Shown here: positions 7,972-59,999 of the stretch, in pieces
Position numbering within the stretch: position 1 is the stretch's first letter
Layout of the letters: the number at the start of each line of letters is the position of its first letter
Assembly (NCBI GenBank): GCA_026706075.1
Contig: JAPOZM010000001.1
Coordinates: forward strand, 16,230-80,229
DNA length: 64,000 nucleotides
Direction of reading: 5' to 3'
Source of the DNA: Gemmatimonadaceae bacterium
GTDB lineage: Bacteria > Latescibacterota > UBA2968 > UBA8231
The notes under the pieces: model-generated
The model's input: the letters and a program-made list of their open reading frames with translations, nothing else
Databases searched by the model: none
Told to the model about the DNA's origin: nothing
Program-made: the position numbers and the translations under genes

Positions 7972-7982
7972 GCGACCCGGCT

Positions 7983-14505: not shown

Positions 14506-14521
14506 GGCTCTCGTGTTCCTC

Positions 14522-14941: not shown

Positions 14942-15074
14942 GCTCTCGTCCTTCTCCTCGGTGTGGTTGGGTCTGGCGGCCGGGGAAGGTACGCAAGGCG
15001 CACCTGCCTCGCCGGAGCCGGACGCGGTGACTACATTGCGCCGCTCCCGAACCCGAGACAGGAGACCCGCCGGA

Positions 15075-18447: not shown

Positions 18448-18513
18448 TGGGCGGACCGATCATCCGTTAGGCATGCCATACACCGCTTCGATAGCCCAAA
18501 CGGCGGAGGCGCC

Positions 18514-44393: not shown

Positions 44394-44471
44394 GGGATCG
44401 TAGTTCAGCTGGTATAGAACGCCGGCCTGTCACGCCGGAGGTCGCGGGTTCGAGTCCCGTCGGTCCCGCCA
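44394..44471 (+). tRNA. tRNA-Asp (anticodon GTC), CCA encoded
   Basis: Folded by hand. Acceptor GGGATCG/CGGTCCC, D arm GTTC..GAAC, anticodon stem CCGGC/GCCGG with loop CTGTCAC, T arm GCGGG-TTCGAGT-CCCGT, discriminator G plus CCA. Confidence 0.9.
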
Positions 44472-47838: not shown

Positions 47839-47913
47839 CTCGGCCCCATAGGATAGGTCCGGCCCCCGGTGCCCGTCAAGATCCTGGTGGGGGCCGCCGA
47901 CAAGGATCGACCG

Positions 47914-48582
47914 ATGCTCAGCGACGCGGTGCAGGACTACCTGAAGGCGATCTTCAAGCTCTCCCGGGCCCCGGAGGCGGCCGGCATGGTGACCACCTCC
48001 CACATCGCCGCGCGCCTGCGGGTATCGGCGGCTTCGGCTACGAACATGATCAAGAAGCTGGCGGAGATGCGGCTCCTCGACCACCACCCGTACCAGGGGG
48101 TGGAGCTGACGCCCGCGGGCGAGAAGATCGCCCTGGAGATCGTGCGCCATCACCGCCTCCTCGAGCTCTATCTCCGCGAGGCCCTGGGCTACGAGTGGGA
48201 CCAGGTCGATGCCGAGGCCGACCGCCTCGAGCACGTCATCTCCGAGGACTTCGAGGACCGCATCGACAAGGCCCTCGGGCACCCCACCGTCGGCGCCCAC
48301 GGCGAGCCGATCCCCACCAAGGACGGGGAGATCGCCGACCACCACTACCAGCGGCTCTCCGAGCTGAGCGCGGGGCAGCGCGGCCGCATCCGGCAGGTGA
48401 GCGACCGGGACCCGGAGTTGCTCCGCTACCTCGACCGCAGCGGACTCGTCCTCGGCACCGAGGTCCGAGTCCGCGACCGGGCTCCCTTCCAGGGGCCCAT
48501 CCTCCTGGACGTGGGACGCTCCGGCGAGCGGCACATCGGCCTCGACGTGGCTGCGGCGATCTATGTCGACGTTCTGCGGTAG
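47914..48582 (+). CDS. DtxR/MntR family metal-dependent transcriptional regulator
   Basis: In ORF 47869..48582; ATG 47914 (MLSDAVQDYLKAIFKL). ...TTSHIAARLRVSAASATNMIKKLAEMRLL...RHHRLLELYL...C-terminal SH3/FeoA-like domain. Confidence 0.85.
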   Translation: MLSDAVQDYLKAIFKLSRAPEAAGMVTTSHIAARLRVSAASATNMIKKLAEMRLLDHHPYQGVELTPAGEKIALEIVRHHRLLELYLREALGYEWDQVDAEADRLEHVISEDFEDRIDKALGHPTVGAHGEPIPTKDGEIADHHYQRLSELSAGQRGRIRQVSDRDPELLRYLDRSGLVLGTEVRVRDRAPFQGPILLDVGRSGERHIGLDVAAAIYVDVLR

Positions 48583-48883
48583 GGTGGAACCCTTCTTCAC
48601 ACCCGCCTCGGAGGAGCATGTGGCCCGCGAGAAGGGCAGGGCCCGGGACCTCCGCAGAAGCCAGTGGTGGAAACGCCGGCTGGGCCGCGGAAGGTGCCAC
48701 TACTGCGGCCGGTCGACGCCGCCGCGGGAGCTCACCATGGACCACGTGGTGCCCATCGTGCGCGGCGGCGCCAGCGAGAAGGGCAACGTCGTCCCCTGCT
48801 GCAAGGAGTGCAACAGCCGCAAGAGGGACCTGCTGCCTCTCGAATGGGAGGAGTATCTCCAGCGGCTGGAAGGACGGGACTAG
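48563..48883 (+). CDS. HNH endonuclease domain protein
   Basis: ORF 48563..48883; an in-frame GTG at 48584 would avoid the overlap. CHYCGR...MDHVVPIVRGG...NVVPCCKECNSRK is a CxxC...H...N...CxxC HNH motif. Confidence 0.7.
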   Translation: MSTFCGRVEPFFTPASEEHVAREKGRARDLRRSQWWKRRLGRGRCHYCGRSTPPRELTMDHVVPIVRGGASEKGNVVPCCKECNSRKRDLLPLEWEEYLQRLEGRD

Positions 48884-48907: not shown

Positions 48908-49849
48908 TCAGTGGTAGTGGAGGATGGGGCGGATGGCGGCTTCCACCTCGGCGGCCACCTCCGGCGGCACCCGCGGGTTGAAGGGGCCCCCCTCGCCGCC
49001 CTCGATGTCTTCGAAGCCGCCCAGGTGCATCGCCTCGACGACGGCGGAGTAGTTGTAGCGGCGGTCGTCGCGGAAGCGGATCTCCTCCAGCGGCGCCAGC
49101 TCCTCCTCGACCATGCGGGCGCGCTCGTAGTCGCCGCGCCGCTGGGCGTTGTTGATCTCGTCCGAGGCCCTGGCGAAGACCACGTTGATTCCCGAGGTGT
49201 GGCCCCGGGCTCCCTCCTGAGCCGGTCCCGTGCTGCGGTCGCCGATCCCCCAGATGACGATGCCGGCGCCGTCCCGGACGCCTTCTACCATTGGTCTCAC
49301 GTCGCCGGGGCGGGTACCGATCTTGACCCCGAGGAAGTGGGCCGAGTCATTCACCAGGCGCAGGGCCGTGGGCGCCTGGTTGGACTGGCGCAGGTAGTAG
49401 AGGAAGCGGGCCCCGTGCTCGCCTCCGAGCCGCTCGGCGAGGGCCATGTAGCCGTGGTAGATGCCCTCCGGATCGGCCACGCCGGTCAGCGGCATGATCA
49501 GGTAGGCGTCGGGCGGGTTCGCGAGCCGGCACTGGGCGGCGATGAGCCGCTCGGCGTCGGCCTGCGGGTTGGGCGCCACCCCGGAGATGAAGATCCCCCT
49601 GCCCGCTACCCGGGCTGCCGTGAACTCCATCAGGTTCAACTGCTCGTCCGTGTCGATGTGGTGGACGAGGCTGGTGCCGGCGATGGAGACCACGCGGGCG
49701 CGATCCCCCTCCAGCAACTTGGTGCCGAGTAGGTACTCGATGTTCCTCCCGTGGGCCTCGTAGTCGATCCGCCCGCCCCTGAAGGGGACGATGGGGATGG
49801 AGATGACGGTGTCGAGGGCGTCGATCAGATCTTCGGTGCTCAGGGGCAT
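48908..49849 (-). CDS. dihydrodipicolinate synthase/N-acetylneuraminate lyase (DapA) family protein, divergent
   Basis: ORF 48908..49849, ATG start. IPIVPFRGGRIDYEAHGRNIEYLL...FISGV...GVKIGT follows the DHDPS-fold layout, but the GxxGE motif is degenerate (AGTSLV). It is the last gene of the BMC operon strand run. Confidence 0.55.
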   Translation of the reverse strand: MPLSTEDLIDALDTVISIPIVPFRGGRIDYEAHGRNIEYLLGTKLLEGDRARVVSIAGTSLVHHIDTDEQLNLMEFTAARVAGRGIFISGVAPNPQADAERLIAAQCRLANPPDAYLIMPLTGVADPEGIYHGYMALAERLGGEHGARFLYYLRQSNQAPTALRLVNDSAHFLGVKIGTRPGDVRPMVEGVRDGAGIVIWGIGDRSTGPAQEGARGHTSGINVVFARASDEINNAQRRGDYERARMVEEELAPLEEIRFRDDRRYNYSAVVEAMHLGGFEDIEGGEGGPFNPRVPPEVAAEVEAAIRPILHYH

Positions 49850-49928
49850 GCAGGGCTCCGGTCATTGGGTGAGTGGGTGGCGTGCCGCGGCAGGCGCGGT
49901 AGAGAGTACGGAGGCTCGTCGATGGCCG

Positions 49929-51029
49929 TCAACGATCCACCCGGAAGGGGGACATCTCCCGGCCCGGGTCGCCCCTGGTGATCCACCGGGCGAGGACCCG
50001 CCCCGTGAGAGGCCCCATGAGGATGCCGTTTCTGTAGTGGCCGGTGGCCGCCCAGAGGTTGTCCGCACCAGGCACGGGGCCGATGAGAGGGCGACCCTGG
50101 GGGGGCTTGGGGCGCAGGCCGGCGCGCTGTTCGCGCAGGACCGGGGGTCGGGCGAGAACCCGCCCGCACAGGGCCGACAGCTCCTGATGCGCCGCCGGTG
50201 TGGTGCGGGCGTCGAACCCGGTCTCCTCGACGGTGCCGCCGACGAGCAGGCCTCCCGGGGCCGGCAGCACGTTTCCCCCGGAGCAGCGGAGCACGTGGCG
50301 TACGGGACCGCCGGCGAAGAGACAGCTCTGACCTCGTACCGGCCGCACCCGCAGCCGCCCCGCCGCCGGGCCGTCGAAGTCCGCGGACCAGGATCCGGCG
50401 GCGATCACCGCGGCATCGAAGGTGGCTCGCCTGGAACCGCCGCCCTCGTGCAGGTCGCACTCCACCCCGCCGGGCGCCGGGCGCAGGCCGCCGACGGCGA
50501 CGCCGAAGCGGAACCGGGCGCCCCTGCCCTCGGCGGCGCGCTGCAGGACCGATGCCAGAGTCGGCGGGTCGACCCGCTGATCGCCGGGGTAGAAGGCGGC
50601 CCCCGCCGCCGACTCCGACAGGGCGGGTTCGGCCTCCCGCAGCCGGCCCTCTTCGAGCCACTCCCCCCGGACGCCGCGGGACAGGTTCTCCTCCAGGCGT
50701 GAGCGCAGCGCCTCGGCCTCCCCCTCATCGAGAGCCAGATCCAGTCCCCCCAGGGGCCGCCAACCCGCATCCAGGCCGGTCTCCTCGCGCAGCTGCCCGC
50801 TCAGCCTCTCATGCAGGGAATGGGCGTCGCGATAGAAGGAGGAGAACGGGTCCTGCCCCCCGGTGGGCCGGGTCAGGACCCCGAGGGAGGCCCGCGTCGT
50901 GACCGAGGGGGACGAGTCCCGGTCGGCGACGACCACGGAGACCCCCGAGCGGGCGAGATAGTATGCGGCCGAGCGTCCGACGATGCCGGCGCCGGCCACC
51001 AGGACCCGGGCGCGGTTCCCGGCGCTCAC
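49929..51029 (-). CDS. FAD-dependent oxidoreductase (DAO / glycine oxidase ThiO-like)
   Basis: ORF 49929..51029 (GTG start). RVLVAGAGIVGRSAAYYLARSGVSVVVADRD dinucleotide fold and C-terminal ...ATGHYRNGILMGPLTG... Confidence 0.8.
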   Translation of the reverse strand: MSAGNRARVLVAGAGIVGRSAAYYLARSGVSVVVADRDSSPSVTTRASLGVLTRPTGGQDPFSSFYRDAHSLHERLSGQLREETGLDAGWRPLGGLDLALDEGEAEALRSRLEENLSRGVRGEWLEEGRLREAEPALSESAAGAAFYPGDQRVDPPTLASVLQRAAEGRGARFRFGVAVGGLRPAPGGVECDLHEGGGSRRATFDAAVIAAGSWSADFDGPAAGRLRVRPVRGQSCLFAGGPVRHVLRCSGGNVLPAPGGLLVGGTVEETGFDARTTPAAHQELSALCGRVLARPPVLREQRAGLRPKPPQGRPLIGPVPGADNLWAATGHYRNGILMGPLTGRVLARWITRGDPGREMSPFRVDR

Positions 51030-51047
51030 GACGCCCGCCGGACCGCC

Positions 51048-52253
51048 TCAGCCTCCGGCCGCGGGCCTGCGAGCGGCCACGATGGGCGGCAGATGGGTCA
51101 CCGGACAGCCCCGGGCTCCACGCACGGAATAGCCCATGTCGCCGAGGACGCAGCCGATCTCCGACTCGAGGCGAAGCAGGTAGTCGCGCTCCTCGGCGCT
51201 CAGCACGGTCCGCGGCGGACCGGCGTCGAAACCGCGCACGGCGACCCCGGTCCTGAATCCCTCGGGGAAGTTGACCCCCTGCAGCATGAGGTTGATCAGA
51301 GGCAGGAGGCGGTACTGAAGCTCCCTGGCCCGCTCCAGGTCTCCGGCGACGGCGCGGTCGTAGAGCTCGACGATGACCTCGGGGACGATGCCGGAGGTGG
51401 CGGTGGTGCCGCCGTTGGCGCCCATGACGATCGACGGGAGCAGGATCTCCTCACAGCCGTTGAGCACGACGTAGTCGGGCCGCTGCGGGCGCAGGCGGTG
51501 CATGGTGTTGAGGATGCGCGGCAGGTCGCGGCTGGAGTCCTTGGTGCCGAAGATGCGCTCGAAGGCGAGGAGCCGCTCCATCGTGTCGAGGGGCAGCTCC
51601 TGGGTGAACTGGGGGATGTTGTAGAGCAGGATGTCGAGGGGCGAGTGGCGGGCGATCTCGGCGAAGTACTCGTAGAGGCTGGTGTCGGAGATCCTGTAAT
51701 AGTAGGGCGGCACGAGGGAGATGGCGTCGGCGCCGAGGTCGGCGTAGTACCCGGCCATCTGCAGCACGTCGCGGATGTTGGCCTCGCTGGCGCCCGCGAG
51801 GATCGGCACCCGCCCCTGGTTGACCTCGGCAATGAGCCGCACCACGTCGCGCCGCTCCTCGCTGGAGAGGCGCACGAACTCGCCCGTGCTGCCGTTCGGG
51901 TAGAGACCGTGGATGCCGGCCTCGATCAACCACGCGATGTAGCGCTCCATCTTGCCGTAGGAGATGCCCCCCTGGTCGTCGTAGATGACGATGTTGGCGG
52001 TGAAGATGCCGCTGAAGCGGCGGCTGCGCTCGGTCCCGCCGGGAGACGCGGCCACGCTGGAGGGAGGGTCTTCCGGCCGGGGGTCCGGCCCGGCCACCGG
52101 GCGCAGCACGACCTCGATCCCCCGGGCCCGCAGCAGGTCCCTGGCGGAGGGTGTGAGCTTCGAGCCCGGCGAGATCTCCACCTGTCCGTCGTCCTCCCCG
52201 AGGCGGGTCTCGAGCAGTTGGGCGGTGACTACGGGATCATCGATGCGGACCAT
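51048..52253 (-). CDS. DapA/NAL-family class I (Schiff-base) lyase with a roughly 95-aa N-terminal extension
   Basis: ORF 51048..52253, ATG start. The core carries PNGSTGEF (GxxGE), LLYNIPQFT and FGTKDSS (Lys context). It is preceded by MVRIDDPVVTAQLLETRLGEDDGQVEISPGSKLTPSARDLLRARGIEVVL plus a Pro-rich linker. Confidence 0.8.
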   Translation of the reverse strand: MVRIDDPVVTAQLLETRLGEDDGQVEISPGSKLTPSARDLLRARGIEVVLRPVAGPDPRPEDPPSSVAASPGGTERSRRFSGIFTANIVIYDDQGGISYGKMERYIAWLIEAGIHGLYPNGSTGEFVRLSSEERRDVVRLIAEVNQGRVPILAGASEANIRDVLQMAGYYADLGADAISLVPPYYYRISDTSLYEYFAEIARHSPLDILLYNIPQFTQELPLDTMERLLAFERIFGTKDSSRDLPRILNTMHRLRPQRPDYVVLNGCEEILLPSIVMGANGGTTATSGIVPEVIVELYDRAVAGDLERARELQYRLLPLINLMLQGVNFPEGFRTGVAVRGFDAGPPRTVLSAEERDYLLRLESEIGCVLGDMGYSVRGARGCPVTHLPPIVAARRPAAGG

Positions 52254-52264
52254 GCCTGTGTCGC

Positions 52265-53416
52265 CTAACCGTGGGGCAGGCGCATCTCCATCTCTTGATA
52301 GGGCAGGTGGATGGCGTGAGCGGCGACCAGCTCCCCGTAGGGGCCGGCCGTGTGCCTCGCGACCTCGAGAGCTGTGTCGACAGCCCCCGTCTCTCCGCGG
52401 ACTACGCAGGCGGTCAGGAAGTAGCCAACCTTGTAGCGGCCCTCGTAGGTCACGTCGGCGTGCTTGAGCATCTCGTCGAGGGCCTTGACGAGACCGGCGG
52501 TGGTGCGCGTCTCCACCAGACCCAGGGCGCGGCCTGCGAGGGTGCGCGCACCGGGAGACTCGCCGGCCCGGGCGAAGCAGGCCACCACTTGCGGATCCGG
52601 ACCGCTGATCACCACCTGCCCCTCCAGCTCTGCGGTCTCACCGGCCCTTCGGGCGCCCTCGGCGACGGCGGCGCCGACCTCGTCCAGGGATCCGGAGGCG
52701 ATGGCCGCCACGCGGCCCCCGCTGCCGATCGTCAGCCGCGCCAGGTCGACGCGCCCTCCCTTCACCATGCCGTCGACGGCGGCCACCGAGCCCGCGTACC
52801 CCGTGGCCTCGACGATCCCGAGAGCGGCCGCGGTGCGTGGGTCGCCCGGGGGAATGGAGGGCAGCAGGACGCCCACTTCGGCCTCCGGTTGGGGCAGCAC
52901 GAGGGCGCCGTGGAACTCCCCCGCCCGCCGGGCCGCCCCTTCCCCGGCCCGCACGGCCGCCTCCACCGCCCCCACCGAGCCGCTGACGGTGGCATGCACC
53001 AGGGCGCCGCCGATGAAGGCCCAGCCGTGGAGCTCGACGGCGCCGGCCTTGACCATGGCGTCGGCGGCGGCGGCCAGGGGGACCAGGCCCCGCGTCTCCA
53101 GGAGGCCGATGGCCTGGAGGCCGGGCCTGGGCTCGAGAGGGGCGCCGAGGTGCGGCATCGGCTCGAGGGCGCCGGAGTCGGCCCCCGGTACGAGGGCCGC
53201 CGTGATCACCTCTCCGTGGGCGGCGGCCGCCTCCCGCCCCGCGTCGAGGGCGGTGCGCGCGTCGGCCGTGGAGCCTTCGACGATCACGGTCAACCAGCCG
53301 GAGCCGATACCGTGGCGTCCCCCCAGGCGCACCGAGGCCGCCTTGTGCATCGAGTCGAGGGCCGCCGCCAGAGCCGTCATGCCCCTGACCTCCAGGATGC
53401 CGAGGGCACGTTCCAT
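52265..53416 (-). CDS. BMC shell protein with four tandem BMC (PF00936-like) domains
   Basis: In ORF 52265..53506; ATG 53416 (ATGA overlap). Four domain openings sit in one frame with no stops: ALGILEVRGMTALAAALDSMHKAASV, AIGLLETRGLVPLAAAADAMVKAGAV, ALGIVEATGYAGSVAAVDGMVKGGRV and ALGLVETRTTAGLVKALDEMLKHADV. Each is followed by about 60 aa of the fold. Confidence 0.85.
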   Translation of the reverse strand: MERALGILEVRGMTALAAALDSMHKAASVRLGGRHGIGSGWLTVIVEGSTADARTALDAGREAAAAHGEVITAALVPGADSGALEPMPHLGAPLEPRPGLQAIGLLETRGLVPLAAAADAMVKAGAVELHGWAFIGGALVHATVSGSVGAVEAAVRAGEGAARRAGEFHGALVLPQPEAEVGVLLPSIPPGDPRTAAALGIVEATGYAGSVAAVDGMVKGGRVDLARLTIGSGGRVAAIASGSLDEVGAAVAEGARRAGETAELEGQVVISGPDPQVVACFARAGESPGARTLAGRALGLVETRTTAGLVKALDEMLKHADVTYEGRYKVGYFLTACVVRGETGAVDTALEVARHTAGPYGELVAAHAIHLPYQEMEMRLPHG

Positions 53417-53994
53417 CAGCCTGCCCCGGCGGCCGGACGGAAGAGGAGGAAGGCCCGCAGCACCGCCGGCAGGGGGCGCGGGATCACCGCCGCTGCCATG
53501 AACCACTCGCTGCCGCCCAGTCTCTCCCGGCCGCGGCCGATGGCCTGTTCGACGGCGTCCACGGTGCCGGTGATCAGGCTGCAGACGACGCGGTTGTGCA
53601 CCGTGAGGACGTTGGCCACGGCCACATCGGCGGCCTTCGCCATGGCGTCGTTCACCTCCACGTGGACGCCGTACCCCCGCGTCTCGATCAGGCCAAGGGC
53701 GCCGGCCTCGATCTCACCCGCGGGAAGGGGGCAGCCGACGAAACCGGCGCACTCGGGCTGAGGCTGATCGAGGCAGGCTCCGACCACGTGGCCGGTGACG
53801 GCGCCGGCCGCCGCCTCGCCTGCGCGCAGGGCGGTGCTGACGTCTCCGAGGGGCCCGCGCAGGAAGAGGGTGGTGAACCCGCCGATCGACTCCCATCCCA
53901 TCAGCTCGACCCGCGCCGCCTTGCAGGCGGCGTCAGCGCCGACGACGATACCCGCGACTCCTTCGACCTCGATCATCCCCATGGCGTCGGACAC
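53416..53994 (-). CDS. BMC shell protein, tandem-domain (BMC-T-like)
   Basis: C-terminal part of ORF 53416..54600; GTG 53994 chosen (an ATG at 53982 is also possible), with GAGGA upstream. AMGMIEVEGVAGIVVGADAACKAARV... and ALGLIETRGYGVHVEVNDAMAKAADV... Confidence 0.85.
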   Translation of the reverse strand: MSDAMGMIEVEGVAGIVVGADAACKAARVELMGWESIGGFTTLFLRGPLGDVSTALRAGEAAAGAVTGHVVGACLDQPQPECAGFVGCPLPAGEIEAGALGLIETRGYGVHVEVNDAMAKAADVAVANVLTVHNRVVCSLITGTVDAVEQAIGRGRERLGGSEWFMAAAVIPRPLPAVLRAFLLFRPAAGAG

Positions 53995-53999
53995 GGCTT

Positions 54000-54482
54000 T
54001 CAATCCTCGTTCAGCCGGCGAATGATCTCGTCGGTCAGACGCTGCACGAGCGCCTCTTCCTCGCGGTCGGCGGCGGCGCGGCGATTGCAGCCGCCGCAGC
54101 CGCCGTTGGGCCGTCCCGCCGCCTCGGCCCGGTACACGGCGCACTCGGAGCAGGAGGAGGGCTCCACGAACCCGGAGCCGAACTCCTCGGTCTTGCAGCC
54201 GTAGGGGCGGTCGGGGTGATCGCAGCGTCCACGGGCCAGGACCCCGCCCTCGGCGCCGGGAGGCAGCACCTCGGGGACCGCCTCCGCCGGCGCCGGTCCG
54301 AATCCGCCCCGTCCGGTGGACTCTCCCCGGGTCAGCCGCACCCCGTGGCCGCGCAGGTAGTCCCACCCGGTGGGCGTCACCACCGCCTCGGTAGCCACCG
54401 ACACCTCCTTTTGGCCCGCGTGGCGGGCGCGCAGGATCTCCCCGGTGACGACCGTTTCGGAGATGTGCAGCCGACCAGCCAC
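54000..54482 (-). CDS. BMC-associated Cys-rich protein with C-terminal encapsulation-peptide-like helix
   Basis: ORF 54000..54482 (GTG start). N-terminal ISETVVTGEILRARHAGQKEVSVATEAVVTPTGWDYLRGHGVRL. Cys cluster RCDHPDRPYGCKTEEFGSGFVEPSSCSECAVYRAEAAGRPNGGCGGC. C-terminus EEALVQRLTDEIIRRLNED. Confidence 0.65.
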   Translation of the reverse strand: MAGRLHISETVVTGEILRARHAGQKEVSVATEAVVTPTGWDYLRGHGVRLTRGESTGRGGFGPAPAEAVPEVLPPGAEGGVLARGRCDHPDRPYGCKTEEFGSGFVEPSSCSECAVYRAEAAGRPNGGCGGCNRRAAADREEEALVQRLTDEIIRRLNED

Positions 54483-54577
54483 CGTTCAGATTCCCGGGGC
54501 GCCCTCGAGCCTGTCGACGGACCGCGGGATCCCCGCCGCAGCCGCCGGACCCAGCGTCTCCCCCATGACGAATGCCC

Positions 54578-55291
54578 TCAAGGCCGGCTTCCTCCGCCAT
54601 CCTGCTTCTCCAGCACCACCTTCCCGGCGTTCACGAGATCCACGGCGTTGCCTTCGTCGGTGTCGACGTGGACCTCCAGCTTCGAGGCGGCGTCGACGCG
54701 CACGATCACGTCCTCGAGGGCTCCCGGCTGACCGCTGTCGACGACCAGGCGCATGCGATCTCCCGGGGCGACGCCGTAGAACGACGCCTCCCCGGGGTTC
54801 ATGTGCACGTGGCGCGCCGCCCGGATCACCCCCTGGCGCATCTCCAGGCCGCCGGCGGGCCCCACGAGGTAGCACCCGGGCGAGCCGTCGATGTGGCCGC
54901 TGAGCCGCACCGGGGCATCGATCCCGAGAAAGCGCGCGTCGGAGAAAGCGAGCTCTACCTGGCACGCCTCGCGCAACGGCCCGAGGACCCGCAGGTTGGA
55001 GATCATCTGCTTGCGCGGCCCGAAGATGGCCACCGTCTCCTCGGCGGCGAAGGCGCCTTCCTGGTACAGGGGCTTCAGGACGGTCAGCTCGGCGCCGCGA
55101 CCGAAGAGAGTCCGCAGGGCGCCCTCGTCCAGATGACAGTGGCGGGCGGAGATGTTGGCGATCAGGCGAGGGGCCCCGCTCCCGGGACCGGCATCGACAA
55201 CGGGACGGCCCGGCCGGCTGCGAAGGAGGGACTGGCGAACCAGCGCTTCGACCCGGGACCTGTCGACGGCGGCGACCACCTCTCCCCTCAC
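54578..55291 (-). CDS. pduL: phosphate propanoyl/acyl-transferase PduL (PTAC)
   Basis: ORF 54578..55291 (GTG start, GTGA overlap). Both PduL repeats are present (ISARHCHL and RAARHVHM). N-terminal VDRSRVEALVRQSLLRS is an amphipathic helix. Confidence 0.85.
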   Translation of the reverse strand: MRGEVVAAVDRSRVEALVRQSLLRSRPGRPVVDAGPGSGAPRLIANISARHCHLDEGALRTLFGRGAELTVLKPLYQEGAFAAEETVAIFGPRKQMISNLRVLGPLREACQVELAFSDARFLGIDAPVRLSGHIDGSPGCYLVGPAGGLEMRQGVIRAARHVHMNPGEASFYGVAPGDRMRLVVDSGQPGALEDVIVRVDAASKLEVHVDTDEGNAVDLVNAGKVVLEKQDGGGSRP

Positions 55292-55605
55292 CCGGCCCCT
55301 TCTGCGACGCGTCCCAGATCGAGGCGCTCGCCGTCGGCGCTCAGTCCTTCGAGGATGGCGACGATGGCGGCGTCGGTGGGAACCGCACCCAGCTCGGGGG
55401 CGGTGCGCGCCGAGCTGCCCATGACGACGAGGACGATCTCCCCCGTGCCGGCGCTGACGGCGTCGACACAGACGAGCTTGCGGCCGGTCGAGTGGAGCCC
55501 GTCGGGGCGCACGGTGAGAACCTCGGCGAGGAGCAGCCGGCGGCCCGACAGGTTGTCGAGCTTGGCGCTGGCCACCACCGGACCCTTCACCTGGGCGAGG
55601 AGCAT
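55288..55605 (-). CDS. BMC pentamer vertex protein (EutN/CcmL family), copy 1
   Basis: ORF 55288..55605. MLLAQVKGPVVASAKLDNLSGRRLLLAEVL...VCVDAVSAGTGEIVLVVMGSSAR...PTDAAIVAILE. Confidence 0.85.
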   Translation of the reverse strand: MLLAQVKGPVVASAKLDNLSGRRLLLAEVLTVRPDGLHSTGRKLVCVDAVSAGTGEIVLVVMGSSARTAPELGAVPTDAAIVAILEGLSADGERLDLGRVAEGAG

Positions 55606-55608
55606 CGA

Positions 55609-57033
55609 TCAGGTGATGCGGAAGTAATCCACCAGGGCGCAGCGGCGCCGGCGGGTGAAGGTGCGGGCCGTGGTCAGGCCCTCGCCGGTGGGACCGGCGA
55701 TTGAGTAGGTGGAGAACCCTTCGCCGCCGACACCGAGACCGGCATAGGAAGGACCGTTCTTGACGAAGACGGTGGTGTCCACGGCGCGGGCCATGTTGTG
55801 CATGCTCTCCACGTTCCGGGAATGGATCATGGCGGTGTGCCGGTAGCCGTGCTCGGACTCCACGGCGGCGCGGATGCCCTCGTTCACGTCGCGCACGCGC
55901 ACGATGGGCAGAAACGTCATCATCTGCTCCACCGTGACGAAGGGATGGTCGGCGCCGGTCTCACCGATGAGCAACCGCACCCGGTCGTCGAGCTCGAGGC
56001 CGATGGCCCGGCTCAGGACGTTGGCATTGCGGCCGATGAACTCGCGCCCGGGGTGAGGCTGCCCGTCCCCCCCCCGGGGGAGGGCGGCCCTGGTCAGGGC
56101 GTCGACCTGACCCGTGTCGAGCTCGACGGCGCTGTAGGCGACCATCTCCGCCTTGAGGTCATCGGCCACGTCGTCGACGACGAAGCACTGCTTCTCGCCG
56201 ATGCAGAGGATGTTGTTGTCGAAGGCGGCGCCGTCGACGATGTCGCGCGCGGCCTTGCGGATGTCCGCGGTCTCGTCGACGACGACGGGGGGATTCCCGG
56301 GGCCGGCGACGATCGACTTCTTGGGGCTGGCGAGGGCGGCTCGGGCCACGGCAGCCCCGCCGGTGACGAGGATGACCCGGACCCCTCGATGGTTGAACAG
56401 CTCTCCGGCGCTATCGATCGTCGGCTCGGCGATGCAGGCGATCAGGTTCCCCGGTCCTCCGGCGGCGGCGATGGCGTCGTTCAGCAGTTGCACGGAGTGA
56501 GCCGACACCCCCTTGGCCCCGGGGTGCGGGTTGAAGACGACGGAGTTGCCCGCGGCGATGATGCCGATGGCGTTGTTCACCAAGGTCGGCACGGGATGGG
56601 TGGAAGGGGTGACGGCGCAGAAGACGCCGTACGGCGCCATCTCCTCAACCGTCAGGCCGTGGTCCCCCGTCCAGGAAACCGCCTCGAGATCCTCGACCCC
56701 GGGGGTGAGATCGGCCGCCAGATGGTGCTTCTGCACCTTGTCCTCGAAGCGGCCCATGCCGGTCTCTTCGAGGGCCATGCGCGAGAACGTCTCGGCGTGA
56801 TCGCGGGTCGTCTGCCGGATCGCCTCGACGATCTTGCGCCGCAGCTCCAGGCTCTCGTCGACAAGGGCCCTCTGCGCCCGGCCAGCGGCGGCCACCGCCT
56901 CGTCGGCGGAACGGAACAGCCCGGACCCGGATCCGCCCACGGACGAGGGGGCCTGGGCGGACTCGGACCCGACGACCTGCTGCACCACCTCCTCGACGAT
57001 GCGGCGGACCCGCTCTTCGCTCACCTTGGACAC
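55609..57033 (-). CDS. CoA-acylating aldehyde dehydrogenase (PduP/EutE type) with N-terminal encapsulation peptide
   Basis: ORF 55609..57033 (GTG start). SEERVRRIVEEVVQQVV followed by a Gly/Ser linker. NPHPGAK, GPGNPPVVVDETAD and FDNNILCIGEKQ (catalytic Cys context). Confidence 0.9.
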   Translation of the reverse strand: MSKVSEERVRRIVEEVVQQVVGSESAQAPSSVGGSGSGLFRSADEAVAAAGRAQRALVDESLELRRKIVEAIRQTTRDHAETFSRMALEETGMGRFEDKVQKHHLAADLTPGVEDLEAVSWTGDHGLTVEEMAPYGVFCAVTPSTHPVPTLVNNAIGIIAAGNSVVFNPHPGAKGVSAHSVQLLNDAIAAAGGPGNLIACIAEPTIDSAGELFNHRGVRVILVTGGAAVARAALASPKKSIVAGPGNPPVVVDETADIRKAARDIVDGAAFDNNILCIGEKQCFVVDDVADDLKAEMVAYSAVELDTGQVDALTRAALPRGGDGQPHPGREFIGRNANVLSRAIGLELDDRVRLLIGETGADHPFVTVEQMMTFLPIVRVRDVNEGIRAAVESEHGYRHTAMIHSRNVESMHNMARAVDTTVFVKNGPSYAGLGVGGEGFSTYSIAGPTGEGLTTARTFTRRRRCALVDYFRIT

Positions 57034-57043
57034 GTCGGTCCCG

Positions 57044-57310
57044 TCAGATGCCGGCGGCGCTCTTGAGCTTGTCGATGGGACGCGGGATCACATGCACGCT
57101 GCGCAGCTCCCCCACGCCCTGGGCAGCCTGGGCACCGGCGTCGACTGCTGACTTCACCGAGGCCACGTCCCCCTCCACCACAACCGACACCAGGCCTCCG
57201 CCCACACGCTTCTGGCCCGCGTAGCGGACGTCCGCCGTCTTCAGCATCGCGTCCAGCGCCTCCACCGCCGCCGCCAGACCCCGCGTCTCCACCATGCCGA
57301 GAGCACTCAT
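57044..57310 (-). CDS. BMC-H hexamer shell protein
   Basis: ORF 57044..57310. [59 protein letters not shown]...VHVIPRP. Confidence 0.9.
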
Positions 57311-57323
57311 GGCCGTCTCCTCC

Positions 57324-57881
57324 TCAGCCCAGGTACAGGGAAAGGACCGCTTCGGACGGACGGGCGATAACGTGGCGCGTCAGGAGCTCGCCCACGCGCT
57401 CCGCTGCCTCCGCGCCGGACGTGACCGCCGACTGCACGCTGCCCACGTCCCCGGTTACGAGGACCGAAATGTAGCCGCCTCCGATCTCCTGCACGCGGAC
57501 GACCTCCACCTCCGCCGCCTTCTCCATGGCGTCGGCGGCCTCGATGACCCCCGTAGAGCCGCGGGTCTCCACCATGCCCAGGGCGCGGACCCCGCTCACC
57601 TCCCCGCCCCCCTTCGATGGCAGGATCACCCCCAGCTCGGAATGAGGCCGGGGGATCACGTGCACGGCGCGCACCTCCCCGACCTTCGACGCCTCCTGGG
57701 CGCCGGCGTCGACCGCCGACTTCACGGCCGCCACGTCGCCGCCGCAGAAGAGGGTGGTCATGCCCGAGCCCACCCGGTCCCAGCCCAGCAGCTCCACCTT
57801 CGCCGCTTTGGATATCGCGTCTCCCCCGGCGATGAGGCCCGTGAGCCCCACGGTCTCCAACATGCCCAGAGCCTCTGTCAT
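57324..57881 (-). CDS. BMC shell protein, fusion of two canonical BMC domains
   Basis: ORF 57324..57881. [26 protein letters not shown]...VHVIPRP, then [26 protein letters not shown]...RHVIARP. Confidence 0.9.
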
Positions 57882-58168
57882 TTCTCTCCTGCCTGCTCAG
57901 AAGCGGTATCGATGTGAACCCGGTCGACTCGCCCGATGATGGCAGCGTCGGCCGGAACCCCGTCCTCGAAGGCGTTGCATGCCTCCCGGGAGACCTCTAC
58001 GACGACCAAGTCTCCCTCCGCCATGGGCTGCCAGCCGACGGCCACCTCCGGATCGCCCACGCCCCTCAACTCGCCGTCCACGTCCTGCACCAGGTGCAGG
58101 CTCTTGTCGCGGTACGGCTCGACTGTCCGCGACAGGACCACCTGGCCGAGAACGCGGGCGAGCTTCAC
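57878..58168 (-). CDS. BMC pentamer vertex protein (EutN/CcmL family), copy 2
   Basis: ORF 57878..58168 (GTG start, GTGA overlap). MKLARVLGQVVLSRTVEPYRDKSLHLVQ...PADAAIIGRVD. Confidence 0.8.
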   Translation of the reverse strand: MKLARVLGQVVLSRTVEPYRDKSLHLVQDVDGELRGVGDPEVAVGWQPMAEGDLVVVEVSREACNAFEDGVPADAAIIGRVDRVHIDTASEQAGEK

Positions 58169-58425
58169 GGCGCCCCTTCGGGGCCGTCGACGATACCCAC
58201 GACGACGCTGCGCACGGGAGGGAACTCCAGGCCCGTCACCTCGCTGCCGGCGGCGCCCGAGTCGGCCACCAGGACGCGGCAGCCGGGACCGGCGCCCACG
58301 GCGTCGACCGCCAGCTGCAGGGCGGCGTCGCCGTCGCCGTCGTCGACGACCAGGATCCGGCGGCGGTCGAGGGCCGGATGGCGCTCATCGGCCACGACGC
58401 TGCCGATGACCCGCGCCATCCTCAT
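58165..58425 (-). CDS. BMC pentamer vertex protein (EutN/CcmL family), copy 3
   Basis: C-terminal end of ORF 58165..59307; ATG 58425 (ATGA overlap). MRMARVIGSVVADERHPALDRRRILVV...AVDAVGAGPGCRVLV...SVVVGIVD. Confidence 0.75.
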   Translation of the reverse strand: MRMARVIGSVVADERHPALDRRRILVVDDGDGDAALQLAVDAVGAGPGCRVLVADSGAAGSEVTGLEFPPVRSVVVGIVDGPEGAP

Positions 58426-58724
58426 GCGGCAGCCTGGGCGAAGCGACGGCCTCCGGAGCTCACCGCGTCGACGATGCCCACCAGAACGGCATCCACGGGC
58501 AGGTCTCCCATACCCGGGCACTGACGGGCCGAGCTGCCTTGCACCAGGAGCACGACCTGGCCCTGGCCGGCGCCCACGGAGTCGACGCAGACCAGGTGCC
58601 TGCGCGTGGGAAGGGCCTCCTCGCCATCGACGGTGAGCAACTCCACGAGCAGCAGTCTCCGGCCCTCGAGAGCGGCGGCCTTGGCCGAGGCCACCGCCTG
58701 CCCCTTGACCCGCGCCAGGACCAT
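58422..58724 (-). CDS. BMC pentamer vertex protein (EutN/CcmL family), copy 4
   Basis: ORF 58422..58724. MVLARVKGQAVASAKAAALEGRRLLLVELL...VCVDSVGAGQGQVVLLVQGSSAR...PVDAVLVGIVD. Confidence 0.85.
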   Translation of the reverse strand: MVLARVKGQAVASAKAAALEGRRLLLVELLTVDGEEALPTRRHLVCVDSVGAGQGQVVLLVQGSSARQCPGMGDLPVDAVLVGIVDAVSSGGRRFAQAAA

Positions 58725-58730
58725 CTCGCC

Positions 58731-59999
58731 TCAGGACACGGCCGCGGGCTCGTGCAGAGCCAGGTTCCTGAGTCCGGCCCGGATGTCGTCGCCGTCGTAT
58801 CCGTAGTACCCGGCGATGCGCTGGACCACGTCGTCCATGAGCACGTCGGGGCAACTGGCGCCGGAGGTGACCACCAGGCGGGCGGGCAACTCCTCCGGGA
58901 GCCACATCCCGGTCTCGACGACCTCCTTCCGGTGGATGTCGTAGTGACGGATGCGCTCGCGGGAAAGAAGGTCGCCGGCCGAACCGATCAGGTAGCTCGG
59001 CATCACCCGTTCGCAGATCTCCACCAGATGCGAGGTGTTGGAGCTGTTGTAGCCGCCGACGATCACCGCCAGGTCCGGTTCGCTGTCGAGGAGCGCCCGG
59101 GTGGCGTTCTGGTTCCAGTTGGTGGCGTAGCACAGGGTGTCGGCCGTATCGGCAAAGTGACGGTCGAGATCCTTGGAGCCGTAACGCTCGGCCATGGCGT
59201 CGCGGAGGATGGCGGCCACCTCCTTGGTCTCCTCGGCGAGCATCGTCGTCTGGTTGACGACGGCCACCCGCGACAGGTCCCGTTCGGGGTCGAAGCCCTC
59301 CGACCACTTGCCCTCGAAGACCTCGCGGAACTCGCCGACACCGGTCCGGCCGGTGATGAAGGCGGCCACGCTCAGCGCCTCCTCCCGGTCGAGGACGACA
59401 AGGGTCCTGCCGTACTGCTGGGTGTGGGAACGGGTGGCCTGCGTCTCCTCGTGCCGGTACTTCCCGTGGATGATGATCGTGTAGCCCTCGCGGGCGAGCT
59501 CCTCGCCGCGGGTCCAGACCTTGGAGACGAAGGGACAGGTGGTGTCGTAGTGCTCGCGAAACTCCTCCGACGCGGTGTCGATGCCGCTGCGCTGCAGGGA
59601 ATCCTCGATCTCCCGCGTCGTCCCGAAGGCCGGTATCAGGACGACGTCGTCAGAGGAGATCTCCTCTTCGGAGACGAGGCGCTCCCCGTTCTGGTCGTGC
59701 ATGAAGCGGACCCCGCGGCCTTCGAGGTCGTCGTTGACCAGGGGGTTGTGGATGATCTCGCTCACCAGGTTGAACCGCTTGTCGGGATGCCGATCCATGG
59801 CGGAGAAGGCCATGTGGATGGCCCGCTCCACGCCGTAGCAGAACCCGAAGTGGCGTGGGACGAGGACTTCGAGCCGTCCGACGGTCAGGCGGGTCGGCGC
59901 CAGCGAGCGCTTGCCCTCGTTCTCCCGGAAGTCCTTGATCCGCTGAATCACGGGGCCGGCGTAGTGATTGGGCACCCGATCGAACTGCTTGAAGGCCAT
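58731..59999 (-). CDS. ispH: 4-hydroxy-3-methylbut-2-enyl diphosphate reductase (long form)
   Basis: C-terminal 422 aa of ORF 58731..60677; ATG 59999. HFGFCYGVERAI, TTCPFVSKVW and GGYNSSNTSHLVE. Confidence 0.9.
   Translation of the reverse strand: MAFKQFDRVPNHYAGPVIQRIKDFRENEGKRSLAPTRLTVGRLEVLVPRHFGFCYGVERAIHMAFSAMDRHPDKRFNLVSEIIHNPLVNDDLEGRGVRFMHDQNGERLVSEEEISSDDVVLIPAFGTTREIEDSLQRSGIDTASEEFREHYDTTCPFVSKVWTRGEELAREGYTIIIHGKYRHEETQATRSHTQQYGRTLVVLDREEALSVAAFITGRTGVGEFREVFEGKWSEGFDPERDLSRVAVVNQTTMLAEETKEVAAILRDAMAERYGSKDLDRHFADTADTLCYATNWNQNATRALLDSEPDLAVIVGGYNSSNTSHLVEICERVMPSYLIGSAGDLLSRERIRHYDIHRKEVVETGMWLPEELPARLVVTSGASCPDVLMDDVVQRIAGYYGYDGDDIRAGLRNLALHEPAAVS

Follow-up and report, generated by a model that had tools for sequence, protein, structure and literature searches.

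The microcompartment (BMC) locus analysed here lies in a 64-kb stretch of DNA (hereafter the window) whose host is an uncultured Latescibacterota bacterium. From its gene content, the locus is of the MUF2 type, already catalogued but functionally unsolved. Comparison with relatives singled out the class I aldolase DapA1 as the enzyme that probably supplies this compartment with its aldehyde. We estimate at about one in two the probability that DapA1 acts as the encapsulated aldolase of a MUF2-type metabolosome, converting a 2-keto-3-deoxy acid into pyruvate and an aldehyde, most likely lactaldehyde; we infer this substrate from gene context only.

Locus organization and assignment to the MUF2 type

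The 14 co-directional, tightly packed genes of the minus strand at positions 48908-58724 form a true BMC operon (Table 1). Sequence and Pfam analyses bore out the extent and gene number given in a preliminary description of this DNA, and the recomputed spacing agreed with its junctions of -4 to +95 nt. The four pentamer genes and four shell genes with nine BMC domains that it reported were also found with Pfam. In operon order, the PF00936 domains number 2, 1, 2 and 4, and the set comprises four BMC-P, one BMC-H, two tandem BMC proteins and one quadruple BMC fusion.

Table 1. Features of the BMC operon and its flank, from high to low window coordinates
Feature	Length (aa)	Position	Strand	Evidence and details
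ispH/lytB (flank)		58731..59900 (start unfixed; at least this long)	-	PF02401 E 5e-62
BMC-P 1 (EutN/CcmL pentamer)	100	58422..58724	-	PF03319 E 4.4e-24; 4-nt overlap with next gene
BMC-P 2	86	58165..58425	-	PF03319 E 2.4e-18; start codon read from sequence
BMC-P 3	96	57878..58168	-	PF03319 E 3.7e-12
Tandem BMC shell protein (BMC-T type, 2 domains)	185	57324..57881	-	PF00936, 2 stretches, E 1.3e-47
BMC-H	88	57044..57310	-	PF00936 E 3.7e-27
CoA-acylating aldehyde dehydrogenase (PduP/EutE type)	474	55609..57033	-	PF00171; ILCIGEK motif
BMC-P 4	105	55288..55605	-	PF03319 E 2.9e-21
PduL phosphotransacylase	237	54578..55291	-	PF06130 (PTAC) E 1.3e-63; ISARHCHL, AARHVHM
95-nt spacer, putative relic of lost second BMC-H gene		54483..54577	-	one frame ends in IPRSVDRLEGAPGI and a stop
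MUF2 Cys-rich protein	160	54000..54482	-	N-domain 54327-54482; six-Cys core about 54087-54230; C-terminal helix 54006-54083
Tandem BMC shell protein 2	192	53416..53994	-	GTG start; PF00936, 2 stretches, E 3e-32
Quadruple BMC-domain fusion	383	52265..53416	-	PF00936, 4 stretches, E 1.1e-62
DapA1, DHDPS/NAL-family class I aldolase	401	51048..52253	-	PF00701 E 1.4e-59; N-domain 52104-52253; Schiff-base Lys238 codon 51540-51542
ThiO-like FAD-dependent glycine/D-amino-acid oxidase family protein	366	49929..51029	-	PF01266 (DAO) E 1e-62
DapA2, divergent DHDPS-fold protein	313	48908..49849	-	PF00701 E 7e-9 (weak)

Since ispH ends only 6 nt upstream of the BMC-P 1 gene on the same strand, the transcription unit may include 15 genes; this synteny is kept in relatives, and ispH is probably no functional part of the BMC. 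Relatives carry an additional BMC-T and BMC-H pair at the position of the spacer, which may be the remnant of a lost second BMC-H gene. The frame end shown in Table 1 matched the C-terminal 14 residues of BMC-H with a tblastn E-value of 0.57, insignificant alone.

The assignment to MUF2 is based on point-by-point agreement with the catalogue text (Sutter, Melnicki, Schulz, Woyke and Kerfeld 2021, Nat Commun 12:3809, Supplementary Data 2; PMC8217296). Both have an aldehyde dehydrogenase and a phosphotransacylase (PTAC) in the main locus, an encapsulation peptide (EP) on the dehydrogenase, a BMC-P triplet with an extra copy, and double and quadruple BMC-H fusions, the latter described as 'very unusual quadruple linear fusions' (PMC8217296). 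Both also encode a six-Cys protein that bears a C-terminal EP and has its N-terminal domain in common with the nearby pfam00701 class I aldolase (PMC8217296), and the catalogued hosts bear a Gemmatimonadetes label, like the window. In contrast, the window has one BMC-H against two or more in MUF2, no class II aldolase within its 64 kb, and an FAD oxidase and a second DHDPS-like gene of which the entry makes no mention. The preliminary description had left open whether the locus was a named type: it is, but with a different signature enzyme, the catalogue proposing a pfam00596 aldolase and not a DHDPS-family enzyme (PMC8217296).

The earlier view of a metabolosome with aldehyde dehydrogenase and PduL, whose locus encodes none of the classical signature enzymes, is supported. 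A dedicated query for a class II aldolase (tblastn with E. coli FucA) returned nothing from the 64-kb window, and Pfam scans covering the locus and about 27 further ORFs of the window detected none of the other enzymes listed earlier as absent. Pfam and motif analysis confirmed the PduP/EutE-type dehydrogenase and PduL, the former also scoring 641 bits against NCBIfam NF011927 (cut-off 403). Each carries an EP-like N-terminal helix: ERVRRIVEEVVQQV in the dehydrogenase (about 56974-57015; hydrophobic moment 0.76), followed by a Gly/Ser linker, and DRSRVEALVRQSLL in PduL, with a Pro/Gly linker. The Cys-rich protein, which gave no sequence match in Pfam, NCBIfam or PDB, has 109 homologues with conserved C87, C96, C111, C114, C129 and C132. 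As described earlier, it ends in an amphipathic helix, which is EP-like (hydrophobic moment 0.79); in the AF2 model, pLDDT values are 85-96 for its N-domain and about 90 for helix 134-159.

DapA1 and its linkage to shell genes

DapA1 is composed of an N-domain, a disordered linker, a catalytic barrel and a conserved Cys-containing C-terminal tail. The N-terminal extension noticed previously is present, although it measures about 79 residues and not 95, the DHDPS domain beginning at residue 80. The GSTGE motif, YY pair, Tyr and Lys of DapA1 align to T44/T45, Y106/Y107, Y133 and K161 of E. coli DapA; the lysine of GTKDSS, whose alignment had been suggested as a check, falls on the Schiff-base K161. 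DapA1 was also aligned to NanA, whose GYDE motif its GCEE resembles, and a Phe stands in place of the DapA-specific R138. It scores below the cut-offs of the NCBIfam models for NanA, DapA, KDG aldolase and KdgD, and shares 26% identity with YagE. Judged by these alignments, DapA1 has the complete catalytic set of a class I aldolase, and this long DHDPS/NAL-family enzyme is a credible candidate for the aldehyde-generating signature enzyme that the preliminary description saw in it.

The N-domain of DapA1 resembles that of the Cys-rich protein (BLASTP E 4e-4), and AF2 predicts the same fold for both, with pLDDT values of 80-93 for this domain in DapA1 and below 50 for the linker. This domain of about 50 residues (VxTxxxL...TPxAxDxLR) recurs in further BMC proteins, namely at the N-terminus of E. 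coli EutT and in RpiB-like proteins of about 230 residues from BMC loci (some weakly pfam02502), where, unlike in DapA1, it is joined to other catalytic or uncharacterised domains.

In a comparison of aldolase content across 80 aldehyde dehydrogenase-anchored loci, DapA1-like genes occurred only in eight MUF2-like loci and FucA-like class II aldolases only in 39 non-MUF2 loci, with zero overlap. In main loci, and likewise in a satellite-like locus with very different genes otherwise around it, DapA1 with the N-domain always lies 3' of the tandem and quadruple BMC genes. In L081 and the P0101 locus it accompanies shell genes without the oxidase or DapA2, and two MUF2-like loci (L009 and L010) lack it within 10 kb and retain the oxidase and DapA2, which speaks against DapA1 as the signature enzyme.

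In nearly all of the 66 closest relatives lacking the N-domain (44-54% identity), the C-terminus is an amphipathic, EP-like helix of the ...IVxxVxxELKRRG type, and in 20 of the 52 evaluable cases a BMC-T gene lies directly downstream, its start codon often overlapping the preceding stop codon. These terminal helices and adjoining BMC-T genes lead us to read the DapA1 subfamily as BMC cargo elsewhere. In the present lineage, DapA1 would have lost the C-terminal EP of its relatives and gained an N-terminal beta-alpha-beta-alpha-beta domain. As this domain is common to the EP-bearing Cys-rich protein, it may target DapA1 to the compartment, with the Cys-rich protein possibly acting as an adaptor.

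Proposed pathway and the class II alternative

In the proposed mechanism, Lys238 of DapA1 would form a Schiff base with a 2-keto-3-deoxy (4-hydroxy-2-oxo) acid and release pyruvate and a short aldehyde. The latter would most likely be L-lactaldehyde, derived from 2-keto-3-deoxy-L-rhamnonate or -fuconate in a non-phosphorylative 6-deoxyhexose route. The dehydrogenase would then trap the aldehyde as acyl-CoA, which PduL would convert into acyl-phosphate.

Gene contexts in relatives point to this type of substrate. Several BMC-T-coupled relatives of DapA1 stand in rhamnose or sugar-acid operons, and operons of the relatives include genes for RhaT, alpha-L-rhamnosidase or GH106, MR_MLE dehydratase, GFO_IDH_MocA dehydrogenase and an AraC regulator. 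Rhamnose-specific markers are found in few of these loci (RhaT in two, rhamnosidase in two, GH106 in the near-identical contexts of one protein cluster), and none was seen among the window ORFs scanned. MUF2 relatives contain an FAH-family gene best matching 2,4-didehydro-3-deoxy-L-rhamnonate hydrolase, and one carries rhaM. A further hint is that the catalogue groups the MUF2 dehydrogenase with that of the fucose/rhamnose BMC of Planctomycetes-Verrucomicrobia (PMC8217296). Of the substrates considered earlier, the contexts of relatives favour the 2-keto-3-deoxy acid; the D-hydroxyproline analogy is not the best reading.

Non-phosphorylative L-fucose and L-rhamnose routes employ a DHDPS-fold pyruvate aldolase with the same Lys, Tyr and GxTGE set as DapA1, examples being the L-KDF aldolase (Watanabe 2020 JBC), the dapA-like gene of the C. 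jejuni fucose locus (PMC12566272) and E. coli YagE/YjhH. As in these routes, genes for a sugar dehydrogenase, an MR_MLE dehydratase, an amidohydrolase and an SDR occur alongside DapA1 relatives. However, the aldolases of these routes are free cytosolic proteins of about 300 residues, whereas the DapA1 subfamily has putative BMC-targeting appendages and lies beside shell genes.

The fucose/rhamnose metabolosome of Planctomycetes-Verrucomicrobia (PVM) resembles the window in its BMC-P triplet and in its lactaldehyde-type logic, running from aldolase to aldehyde dehydrogenase to PTAC; identities with Pirellulales loci are about 50% for the dehydrogenase and 50-61% for PduL. The aldolase of PVM is a metal-dependent class II enzyme that acts on sugar phosphates, and PVM also has an acetate kinase, while the window has a candidate Schiff-base class I aldolase for a non-phosphorylated keto-deoxy acid and no kinase in the locus. 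Following the catalogue, the route could nevertheless be phosphorylative and PVM-like: a satellite EP-tagged class II aldolase (pfam00596) inside the compartment would cleave fuculose-1-P or rhamnulose-1-P into DHAP and lactaldehyde, DapA1 being a nearby accessory. The EPs on all copies of that satellite-locus aldolase and the placement of the MUF2 dehydrogenase nearest that of PVM argue for it (PMC8217296), as do the FucA-like genes adjoining the dehydrogenase in other Latescibacterota BMC loci (L012-L019, L034). Against this, no FucA-like gene was found within 10 kb of the dehydrogenase in the MUF2-like loci L001-L011 and L024, any more than in the window, and it is the DapA1 subfamily itself that is EP-tagged, coupled to BMC-T genes and, in DapA1, linked by a common domain to an EP-bearing BMC protein. 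We regard the catalogue's scheme as unlikely; since both aldolases would yield the same aldehyde, the two schemes are compatible.

The FAD oxidase and DapA2

The oxidase has glycine oxidase 4ysh as its best PDB match (E 2e-37) and scores 186 bits against the ThiO model TIGR02352, under the cut-off of 250.8. Alignment with 23 orthologues and terminus analysis revealed no terminal extension or targeting peptide, and a GLRP motif, whose Arg we take to bind the substrate carboxylate, kept in 24/24 sequences. In 22 of 25 evaluable loci the gene directly behind DapA1 is that of the oxidase, 0-190 nt away (18 nt in the window, 0 nt in L092), a position that fits a shared pathway and counts against an aldolase-only reading. 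The oxidase is absent from three loci with N-domain DapA1 (L081, the P0101 locus and L101) and was not detected beside any N-domain-less DapA1 relative. DapA2, also without terminal extension or targeting peptide, still has counterparts of the Lys and Tyr133, but those of Thr44, Tyr106/107 and GxTGE are gone; its homologues (58-59% identity) occur outside BMC loci without the oxidase, and it is missing in L093.

The preliminary description proposed a DHDPS/NAL-family aldehyde source fed by the FAD oxidase. The families of the oxidase and the two DapA-like genes were confirmed, but the variants in L009, L010, L093, L081 and the P0101 locus do not bear out one conserved BMC module or a conserved hydroxyproline-like route: all three genes occur together with shell genes only in one syntenic Latescibacterota lineage, to which the linkage of the oxidase and DapA2 is limited and where ispH, HNH and DtxR are just as syntenic. 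Both are probably co-transcribed, lineage-restricted and non-encapsulated, and could be a side input or operon passengers unrelated to the compartment, like ispH.

These genes underlie the amino/imino-acid metabolosome proposed earlier, in which the FAD oxidase would act on a D- or gamma-hydroxy amino/imino acid, such as cis-4-hydroxy-D-proline, and DapA1 or DapA2 would deaminate or cleave the product to a semialdehyde or aldehyde for the dehydrogenase and PduL. The D-hydroxyproline route of bacteria draws on the same three enzyme families, with an FAD D-Hyp dehydrogenase, a DHDPS-family Pyr4H2C deaminase and a KGSA dehydrogenase. The chemistry is coherent if the oxidase yields a 4-hydroxy-2-oxo acid for a pyruvate aldolase, and the conserved position and GLRP motif of this glycine/D-amino-acid oxidase-group enzyme speak for it. 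Yet the window dehydrogenase is CoA-acylating (PduP type) and not a KGSA dehydrogenase, and neither the locus nor the window ORFs scanned yielded a hydroxyproline epimerase or an amino-acid transporter. The single-lineage linkage, the loci without oxidase, the occurrence of DapA2 homologues outside BMC loci and the loss of Thr44 and Tyr107 in DapA2 weigh against it too. Given three genes that form no conserved module, a ThiO-like oxidase, and the lack of a targeting peptide on both the oxidase and DapA2, we keep the analogy as a possibility, and consider such a metabolosome quite improbable.

Equally improbable is that the oxidase and DapA2 have no compartment role whatever, the oxidase serving thiamine synthesis, for instance, as a housekeeping glycine oxidase of the ThiO type: neither thiamine genes nor a TPP riboswitch lie near it, the ThiO score is below cut-off, and its place right behind DapA1 is conserved. 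This passenger status, which would be compatible with either aldolase, agrees with the equally tight packing and synteny of the unrelated ispH and with the frequency of DapA2 family members as stand-alone genes elsewhere. The oxidase is also the fastest-diverging gene of the cluster, with 38-54% identity compared with 76-80% for DapA1.

Operon content and locus type

The fourteen minus-strand genes announced in the preliminary description, spanning 48908-58724 and spaced from neighbor to neighbor by -4 to +95 nt, were recovered, and Pfam and NCBIfam upheld all of its gene-family assignments. A promoter/terminator scan found no internal terminator-like site in the operon and placed its sole promoter-like site upstream of ispH, while Rfam matched a tRNA only and no element in the operon. 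Alcohol dehydrogenase is absent, so that the mechanism proposed below does not account for NAD+ recycling. The dehydrogenase (hydrophobic moment 0.76), PduL and the Cys-rich protein (0.79) each carry a helix resembling an encapsulation peptide (EP).

Features of the bacterial microcompartment (BMC) operon, of its surroundings and of related loci (positions are those of the window unless preceded by the L-number of a relative's locus)
Feature	Position	Assignment or remark
EutN/CcmL pentamer (BMC-P) genes, four		PF03319
Shell genes with 2, 1, 2 and 4 BMC domains		Pfam
CoA-acylating aldehyde dehydrogenase, PduP/EutE type	55609-57033	NF011927, 641 bits (cut-off 403); ILCIGEK motif in translation
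PduL phosphotransacylase (PTAC)	54578-55291	PF06130, E 1.3e-63; SARHCHL and AARHVHM metal-site His motifs in translation
Spacer between PduL and Cys-rich genes	54483-54577	95 nt
Cys-rich protein	54000-54482	160 aa; without family match
N-domain of Cys-rich protein	54327-54482	
Quadruple BMC gene	52265-53416	
DapA1	51048-52253	DHDPS family; 401 aa; catalytic domain from residue 80
N-domain of DapA1	52104-52253	
Conserved tail of DapA1	51048-51160	
ThiO-like oxidase	49929-51029	DAO-family flavoprotein
DapA2	48908-49849	Weak DHDPS-like match, Pfam E 7e-9
ispH	58731-59900	Same strand; end 6 nt upstream of the first pentamer gene
HNH endonuclease gene	48563-48883	Converges on the 3' end of the operon (DapA2 end)
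FeoB genes (two) and genes for DtxR-FeoA fusion repressors (two)	18495-20960, 44538-46988, 46789-47802, 47869-48582	
MR_MLE, cupin and xylose-isomerase-like TIM-barrel genes	13261-15905	About 35 kb from the BMC operon
Two WD40-repeat proteins	5785-8208, 8859-11150	About 800 aa each; side by side
SprA-like protein	25205-31786	2193 aa; type IX secretion
Nitrile-hydratase-alpha-like ORF	688-1491	
tRNA gene	44394-44468	
EP-tagged aldolase	L118:7188-8818	GFO_IDH_MocA dehydrogenase, solute-binding protein (SBP), RhaT, xylose-isomerase-like TIM barrel, aldolase, BMC-T, AraC
EP-tagged aldolase	L171:2920-4667	Aldolase, BMC-T, alpha-L-rhamnosidase
EP-tagged aldolase, protein cluster P0490	L175:10001-11649	GH106, GH62, GH2, AraC, MR_MLE dehydratase, GFO_IDH_MocA, SBP, TIM barrel, aldolase, BMC-T
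FAH-family gene	L009:8986-9888	
eutT with N-domain	L087:18503-19306	E. coli
Gene with N-domain	L094:4948-5682	
DapA2 homologue and DHDPS-family gene	L086:7042-9300	Poribacteria MAG contig

The locus is a further member of a catalogued type, MUF2, which was defined from 13 loci, mostly labelled Gemmatimonadetes (Sutter et al. 2021, supplementary locus descriptions, PMC8217296). Its main locus encodes an AldDh (pfam00171), a PduL-type PTAC and the Cys-rich protein, with six conserved Cys, a C-terminal helix and an N-domain like that of DapA1, while the shell combines a BMC-P triplet and a further BMC-P (four PF03319 genes) with double and quadruple BMC-H fusions (2+1+2+4). All the idiosyncratic MUF2 features are present in the window, and a single BMC-H, of 88 aa, is the only misfit. 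Since PduL is followed in relatives by a second pair of BMC-T and BMC-H genes, the 95-nt spacer at this place in the window may be the scar of the pair's deletion; one frame of the spacer ends ...IPRSVDRLEGAPGI*, resembling the C-terminus of the BMC-H, a match that alone is not significant.

The catalogue authors suggested that the aldehyde probably comes from a class II aldolase (pfam00596) encoded in a satellite locus, and expected substrates like those of the Planctomycetes-Verrucomicrobia fucose/rhamnose type (PVM) because the MUF2 dehydrogenase is closest to that of PVM (PMC8217296). The preliminary description had left open whether its combination of shell and enzymes was a named locus type: it is already catalogued, but with this aldolase as the proposed source of the aldehyde. 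No mention of MUF2 was found in the later papers searched.

DapA1 and its encapsulation-tagged relatives

DapA1 was aligned to E. coli DapA, NanA and YagE. Its K238, the lysine of the GTKDSS motif named in the preliminary description, aligns with the catalytic Schiff-base Lys (K161 in DapA, K165 in NanA). The proton-relay Y133 (LYNIP), the Tyr pair Y106/Y107 (PPYYY) and the carboxylate-binding GxTGE motif (GSTGE) are also present, and this catalytic set is invariant across 14 orthologues. Because the DapA-specific R138, which binds aspartate semialdehyde, is replaced by Phe and the GCEE motif is NanA-like, DapA1 is not a DapA of lysine biosynthesis; with the true-DapA model TIGR00674 it scores 155.8 bits, where the cut-off is 206. 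DapA1 passes none of the curated NCBIfam models, and since NCBIfam has no equivalog for its subfamily, its substrate is not assignable by homology. A meso-diaminopimelate route, with DapA reversed to give aspartate semialdehyde, was rejected, R138 being absent. Judged from its sequence, DapA1 appears to belong to a subfamily of class I aldolases that is dedicated to BMCs.

A metagenome scan with an alignment of DapA1 separated two classes of relatives. First, 14 loci (65-77% identity to DapA1) share its N-terminal domain of about 50 aa (N-domain) and have a MUF2 context. Secondly, 66 loci lack this domain (44-54% identity), and nearly all of their proteins carry at the C-terminus an added stretch with an amphipathic, ...IVxxVxxELKRRG-type helix, which is the classic form of a C-terminal EP. 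These EP-tagged aldolases (metagenome loci L109-L174; examples, with L175, in the table) have a tandem BMC gene directly downstream in 20/52 evaluable contigs, often with overlapping stop and start codons. Several of these aldolases are encoded in rhamnose or sugar-acid operons, with RhaT, rhamnosidase or GH106, MR_MLE, GFO_IDH_MocA and AraC. MR_MLE is the commonest non-shell neighbour family (5/107 neighbouring ORFs scanned, 12 loci). The tail of the DapA1 family is conserved as C.L.DMGY..G.R.CP.T.LP.IV, with two invariant Cys; it has this Cys stretch in common with the EP-tagged relatives, but ends at the first residues of their helix. In those files of the 2021 catalogue that were searched, pfam00701 is not named among BMC enzymes outside the MUF2 note, and no report was found of a widespread EP-tagged, BMC-T-coupled DHDPS-family aldolase subfamily in sugar-acid operons, which is also absent from that catalogue.

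Over its first 50 residues, DapA1 is similar to the N-terminal part of the Cys-rich protein (BLASTP E 4e-4; motif VxTxxxL...TPxAxDxLR). AlphaFold predicts the same beta-alpha-beta-alpha-beta fold for both with high confidence, followed in DapA1 by a disordered linker; N-domain and linker are the only usable parts of the DapA1 model, in which the barrel is poor (AF2, mean pLDDT 60, shallow alignment). Neither the Cys-rich protein nor the N-domain had a match in Pfam (E up to 10), NCBIfam or a PDB profile search, and Foldseek of the model against the PDB returned no solved homologue at E < 0.01. An N-domain profile matched 989 cluster representatives among 1.84 billion proteins, many of them proteins of about 230 aa with an EP-like N-terminal helix; a weak RpiB-like domain also occurs in 25 of the 60 examined. 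In one case the gene for such a protein lies between the pentamer genes of a BMC locus with dehydrogenase and class II aldolase, and the N-terminus of E. coli EutT matches as well. These profile, locus and EutT matches show the N-domain to be an appendage that recurs among BMC-associated proteins; no report of its recurrence in EutT and RpiB-like BMC proteins was found, and the 2021 catalogue does not contain it.

Proposed pathway and competing explanations

In the mechanism that we propose, DapA1 would enter the compartment lumen, for which its relatives would use their own EP; here, targeting may proceed through the N-domain, possibly by its pairing with the EP-bearing Cys-rich protein. DapA1 would cleave a 2-keto-3-deoxy acid into pyruvate and an aldehyde, which the dehydrogenase would convert to an acyl-CoA and PduL to an acyl-phosphate; a redox role of the six-Cys protein is conceivable, though speculative. 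Genomic context favors 2-keto-3-deoxy-L-rhamnonate or -fuconate as the substrate, and hence lactaldehyde as the aldehyde. Eight MUF2 loci (L009, L010, L011, L092, L093, L099, L103, L104), though not the window, have an FAH-family gene in antisense orientation immediately ahead of the dehydrogenase gene; the best NCBIfam match of this FAH-family gene, below cut-off, is 2,4-didehydro-3-deoxy-L-rhamnonate hydrolase, and rhaM adjoins it in L092. L-KDF aldolases of the DHDPS family exist, reportedly described by Watanabe in 2020. Lactaldehyde agrees with the PVM-like expectation of the catalogue, whereas the route through DapA1 would be non-phosphorylative. Lactaldehyde also agrees with earlier in-silico work linking Latescibacteria BMCs to fucose and rhamnose (PMC4454575), and a dapA-like gene of the C. 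jejuni fucose locus is fucose-induced (PMC12566272).

To a wider reading, whose several parts follow, we give as a whole a probability of about 0.4. A distinct subfamily of DHDPS/NAL class I aldolases would be a previously unlisted BMC signature enzyme, mostly with a C-terminal EP and translational coupling to BMC-T in rhamnose-type sugar-acid operons, thereby joining a non-phosphorylative 6-deoxyhexose route to lactaldehyde-processing compartments. The MUF2 member would have exchanged the EP for the N-domain that it has in common with the six-Cys protein, EutT and RpiB-like BMC proteins, suggesting adaptor-type targeting, and the ThiO-like oxidase might add an amino-acid-derived 4-hydroxy-2-oxo acid. 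MUF2 is a catalogued metabolosome type without an established aldehyde-generating enzyme; if DapA1 is that enzyme, MUF2 gains a concrete function that can be assayed, the BMC signature enzymes come to include Schiff-base (class I) aldolases beside the class II and DeoC-type ones, and a tie emerges between microcompartments and the non-phosphorylative breakdown of sugar acids, a common trait of marine and sponge-associated bacteria. Both the EP-tagged relatives and the N-domain with its recurrence are testable handles on cargo targeting and, as read from context and sequence, would make MUF2 function directly testable; the general picture of how metabolosomes work is unchanged.

That the satellite class II aldolase proposed in the catalogue is the real signature enzyme seems unlikely to us; such an enzyme would be compatible with DapA1 as a second input. 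A FucA search found no FucA-like class II aldolase in the 64-kb window, nor, for the MUF2-like loci L001-L011 and L024, in the 10 kb around the dehydrogenase. DapA1-like and FucA-like aldolases were mutually exclusive in the 80 loci anchored on the dehydrogenase, 8 MUF2-like loci having the former and 39 others the latter, with an overlap of 0.

These 80 loci came from a genome scan queried with the dehydrogenase. At 65-98% dehydrogenase identity (98% also in OZ220089.1) they are from Latescibacterota or 'Gemmatimonadetes' MAGs (L001-L011, L024), several from chromosome-level metagenome assemblies; the remainder (45-59%) belong to different BMC types, in Planctomycetota, Clostridia and further groups. 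The Cys-rich gene occurs in L001-L010 and L024 and was not detected in L011, a short contig. The quadruple BMC gene is followed by DapA1, oxidase and DapA2 in L001-L007, L024 and L092, and the metagenome loci L095-L106 have the same three-enzyme order where the contig is long enough, except L101, in which no oxidase was detected after DapA1. Because ispH, the HNH gene and the DtxR-type regulator are equally syntenic in those loci, this linkage mostly reflects shallow vertical inheritance. Co-conservation of the three enzymes with shell genes, a check proposed in the preliminary description, thus mostly holds inside the syntenic lineage, but the module splits elsewhere. DapA1 is absent in L009 and L010, which keep the oxidase and DapA2, and DapA2 is absent in L093, which has DapA1 and the oxidase. 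Two DapA1 orthologues (68-69% identity) likewise come after tandem and quadruple shell genes, yet the genes downstream of them are quite different: a CehA-like hydrolase, PhyH, ADH, DAP-epimerase-like, MR_MLE and SDR in one, an amidohydrolase and an alginate-lyase/heparinase in the other. Homologues of DapA2 (58-59% identity) occur in three unrelated non-BMC neighborhoods, with an oxidase in none. The tie of DapA1 to shell genes is therefore robust, while that of the oxidase and DapA2 does not reach beyond one lineage. A 314-aa gene after DapA1 in L081 was rejected as a DapA2 homologue, being a CehA/McbA-type metallohydrolase.

Glycine oxidases are the nearest relatives of the oxidase (4ysh, E 2e-37); its score with the ThiO model TIGR02352 is 186 bits, below the cut-off of 250.8, ThiO still being its closest family, and neither thiamine genes nor a TPP riboswitch were found in the window. 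It has a GLRP motif in common with 23 orthologues, none of which, like the oxidase itself, has a terminal extension, and it is the fastest-diverging gene in the cluster. DapA2 keeps only the Lys and Tyr133 equivalents of the DHDPS/NAL catalytic set; the aligned family members (4/4, stand-alone homologues included) have G for T44, L/T for Y106/Y107 and AGTSL for GTTGE. No EP-like terminus outside the fold was found on either protein.

The amino/imino-acid route put forward in the preliminary description has in its favor the tight coupling of DapA1 and oxidase and a coherent chemistry, but its enzymes lack EPs and are not conserved beyond one lineage, and we consider it quite improbable. Its likeness to a D-hydroxyproline cluster, in which Hyp 2-epimerase, D-Hyp dehydrogenase, Pyr4H2C deaminase and a non-acylating KGSA dehydrogenase are co-conserved, is not supported: neither the epimerase nor the KGSA dehydrogenase was found among the locus and window ORFs scanned, the dehydrogenase is of the PduP/EutE type, and the oxidase and DHDPS genes are not co-conserved beyond one lineage. 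Little credence is likewise given to the oxidase and DapA2 being operon passengers, like the equally syntenic ispH.

Further observations

In L086, a DapA2 homologue (59%) is followed by a 90-aa ORF and a DHDPS-family gene of canonical length, 28% identical to DapA1; no BMC genes were found on this 9.5-kb contig. In general, proteins of the DapA2 type may function alongside a second enzyme of the DHDPS fold.

Synteny of ispH, the HNH gene and the DtxR/FeoA-type regulator with the BMC operon is kept in relatives down to about 65% dehydrogenase identity, and one of the two DtxR-FeoA repressors of the window directly adjoins the operon. The MR_MLE, cupin and xylose-isomerase-like TIM-barrel genes of the window belong to families that also neighbor EP-tagged aldolases. 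Eukaryote-like repeat proteins, such as the WD40-repeat proteins present here, are typical of host-associated, e.g. sponge-associated, bacteria. The window also encodes the SprA-like protein, one tRNA and the nitrile-hydratase-alpha-like ORF, which may be of the leader-peptide type.
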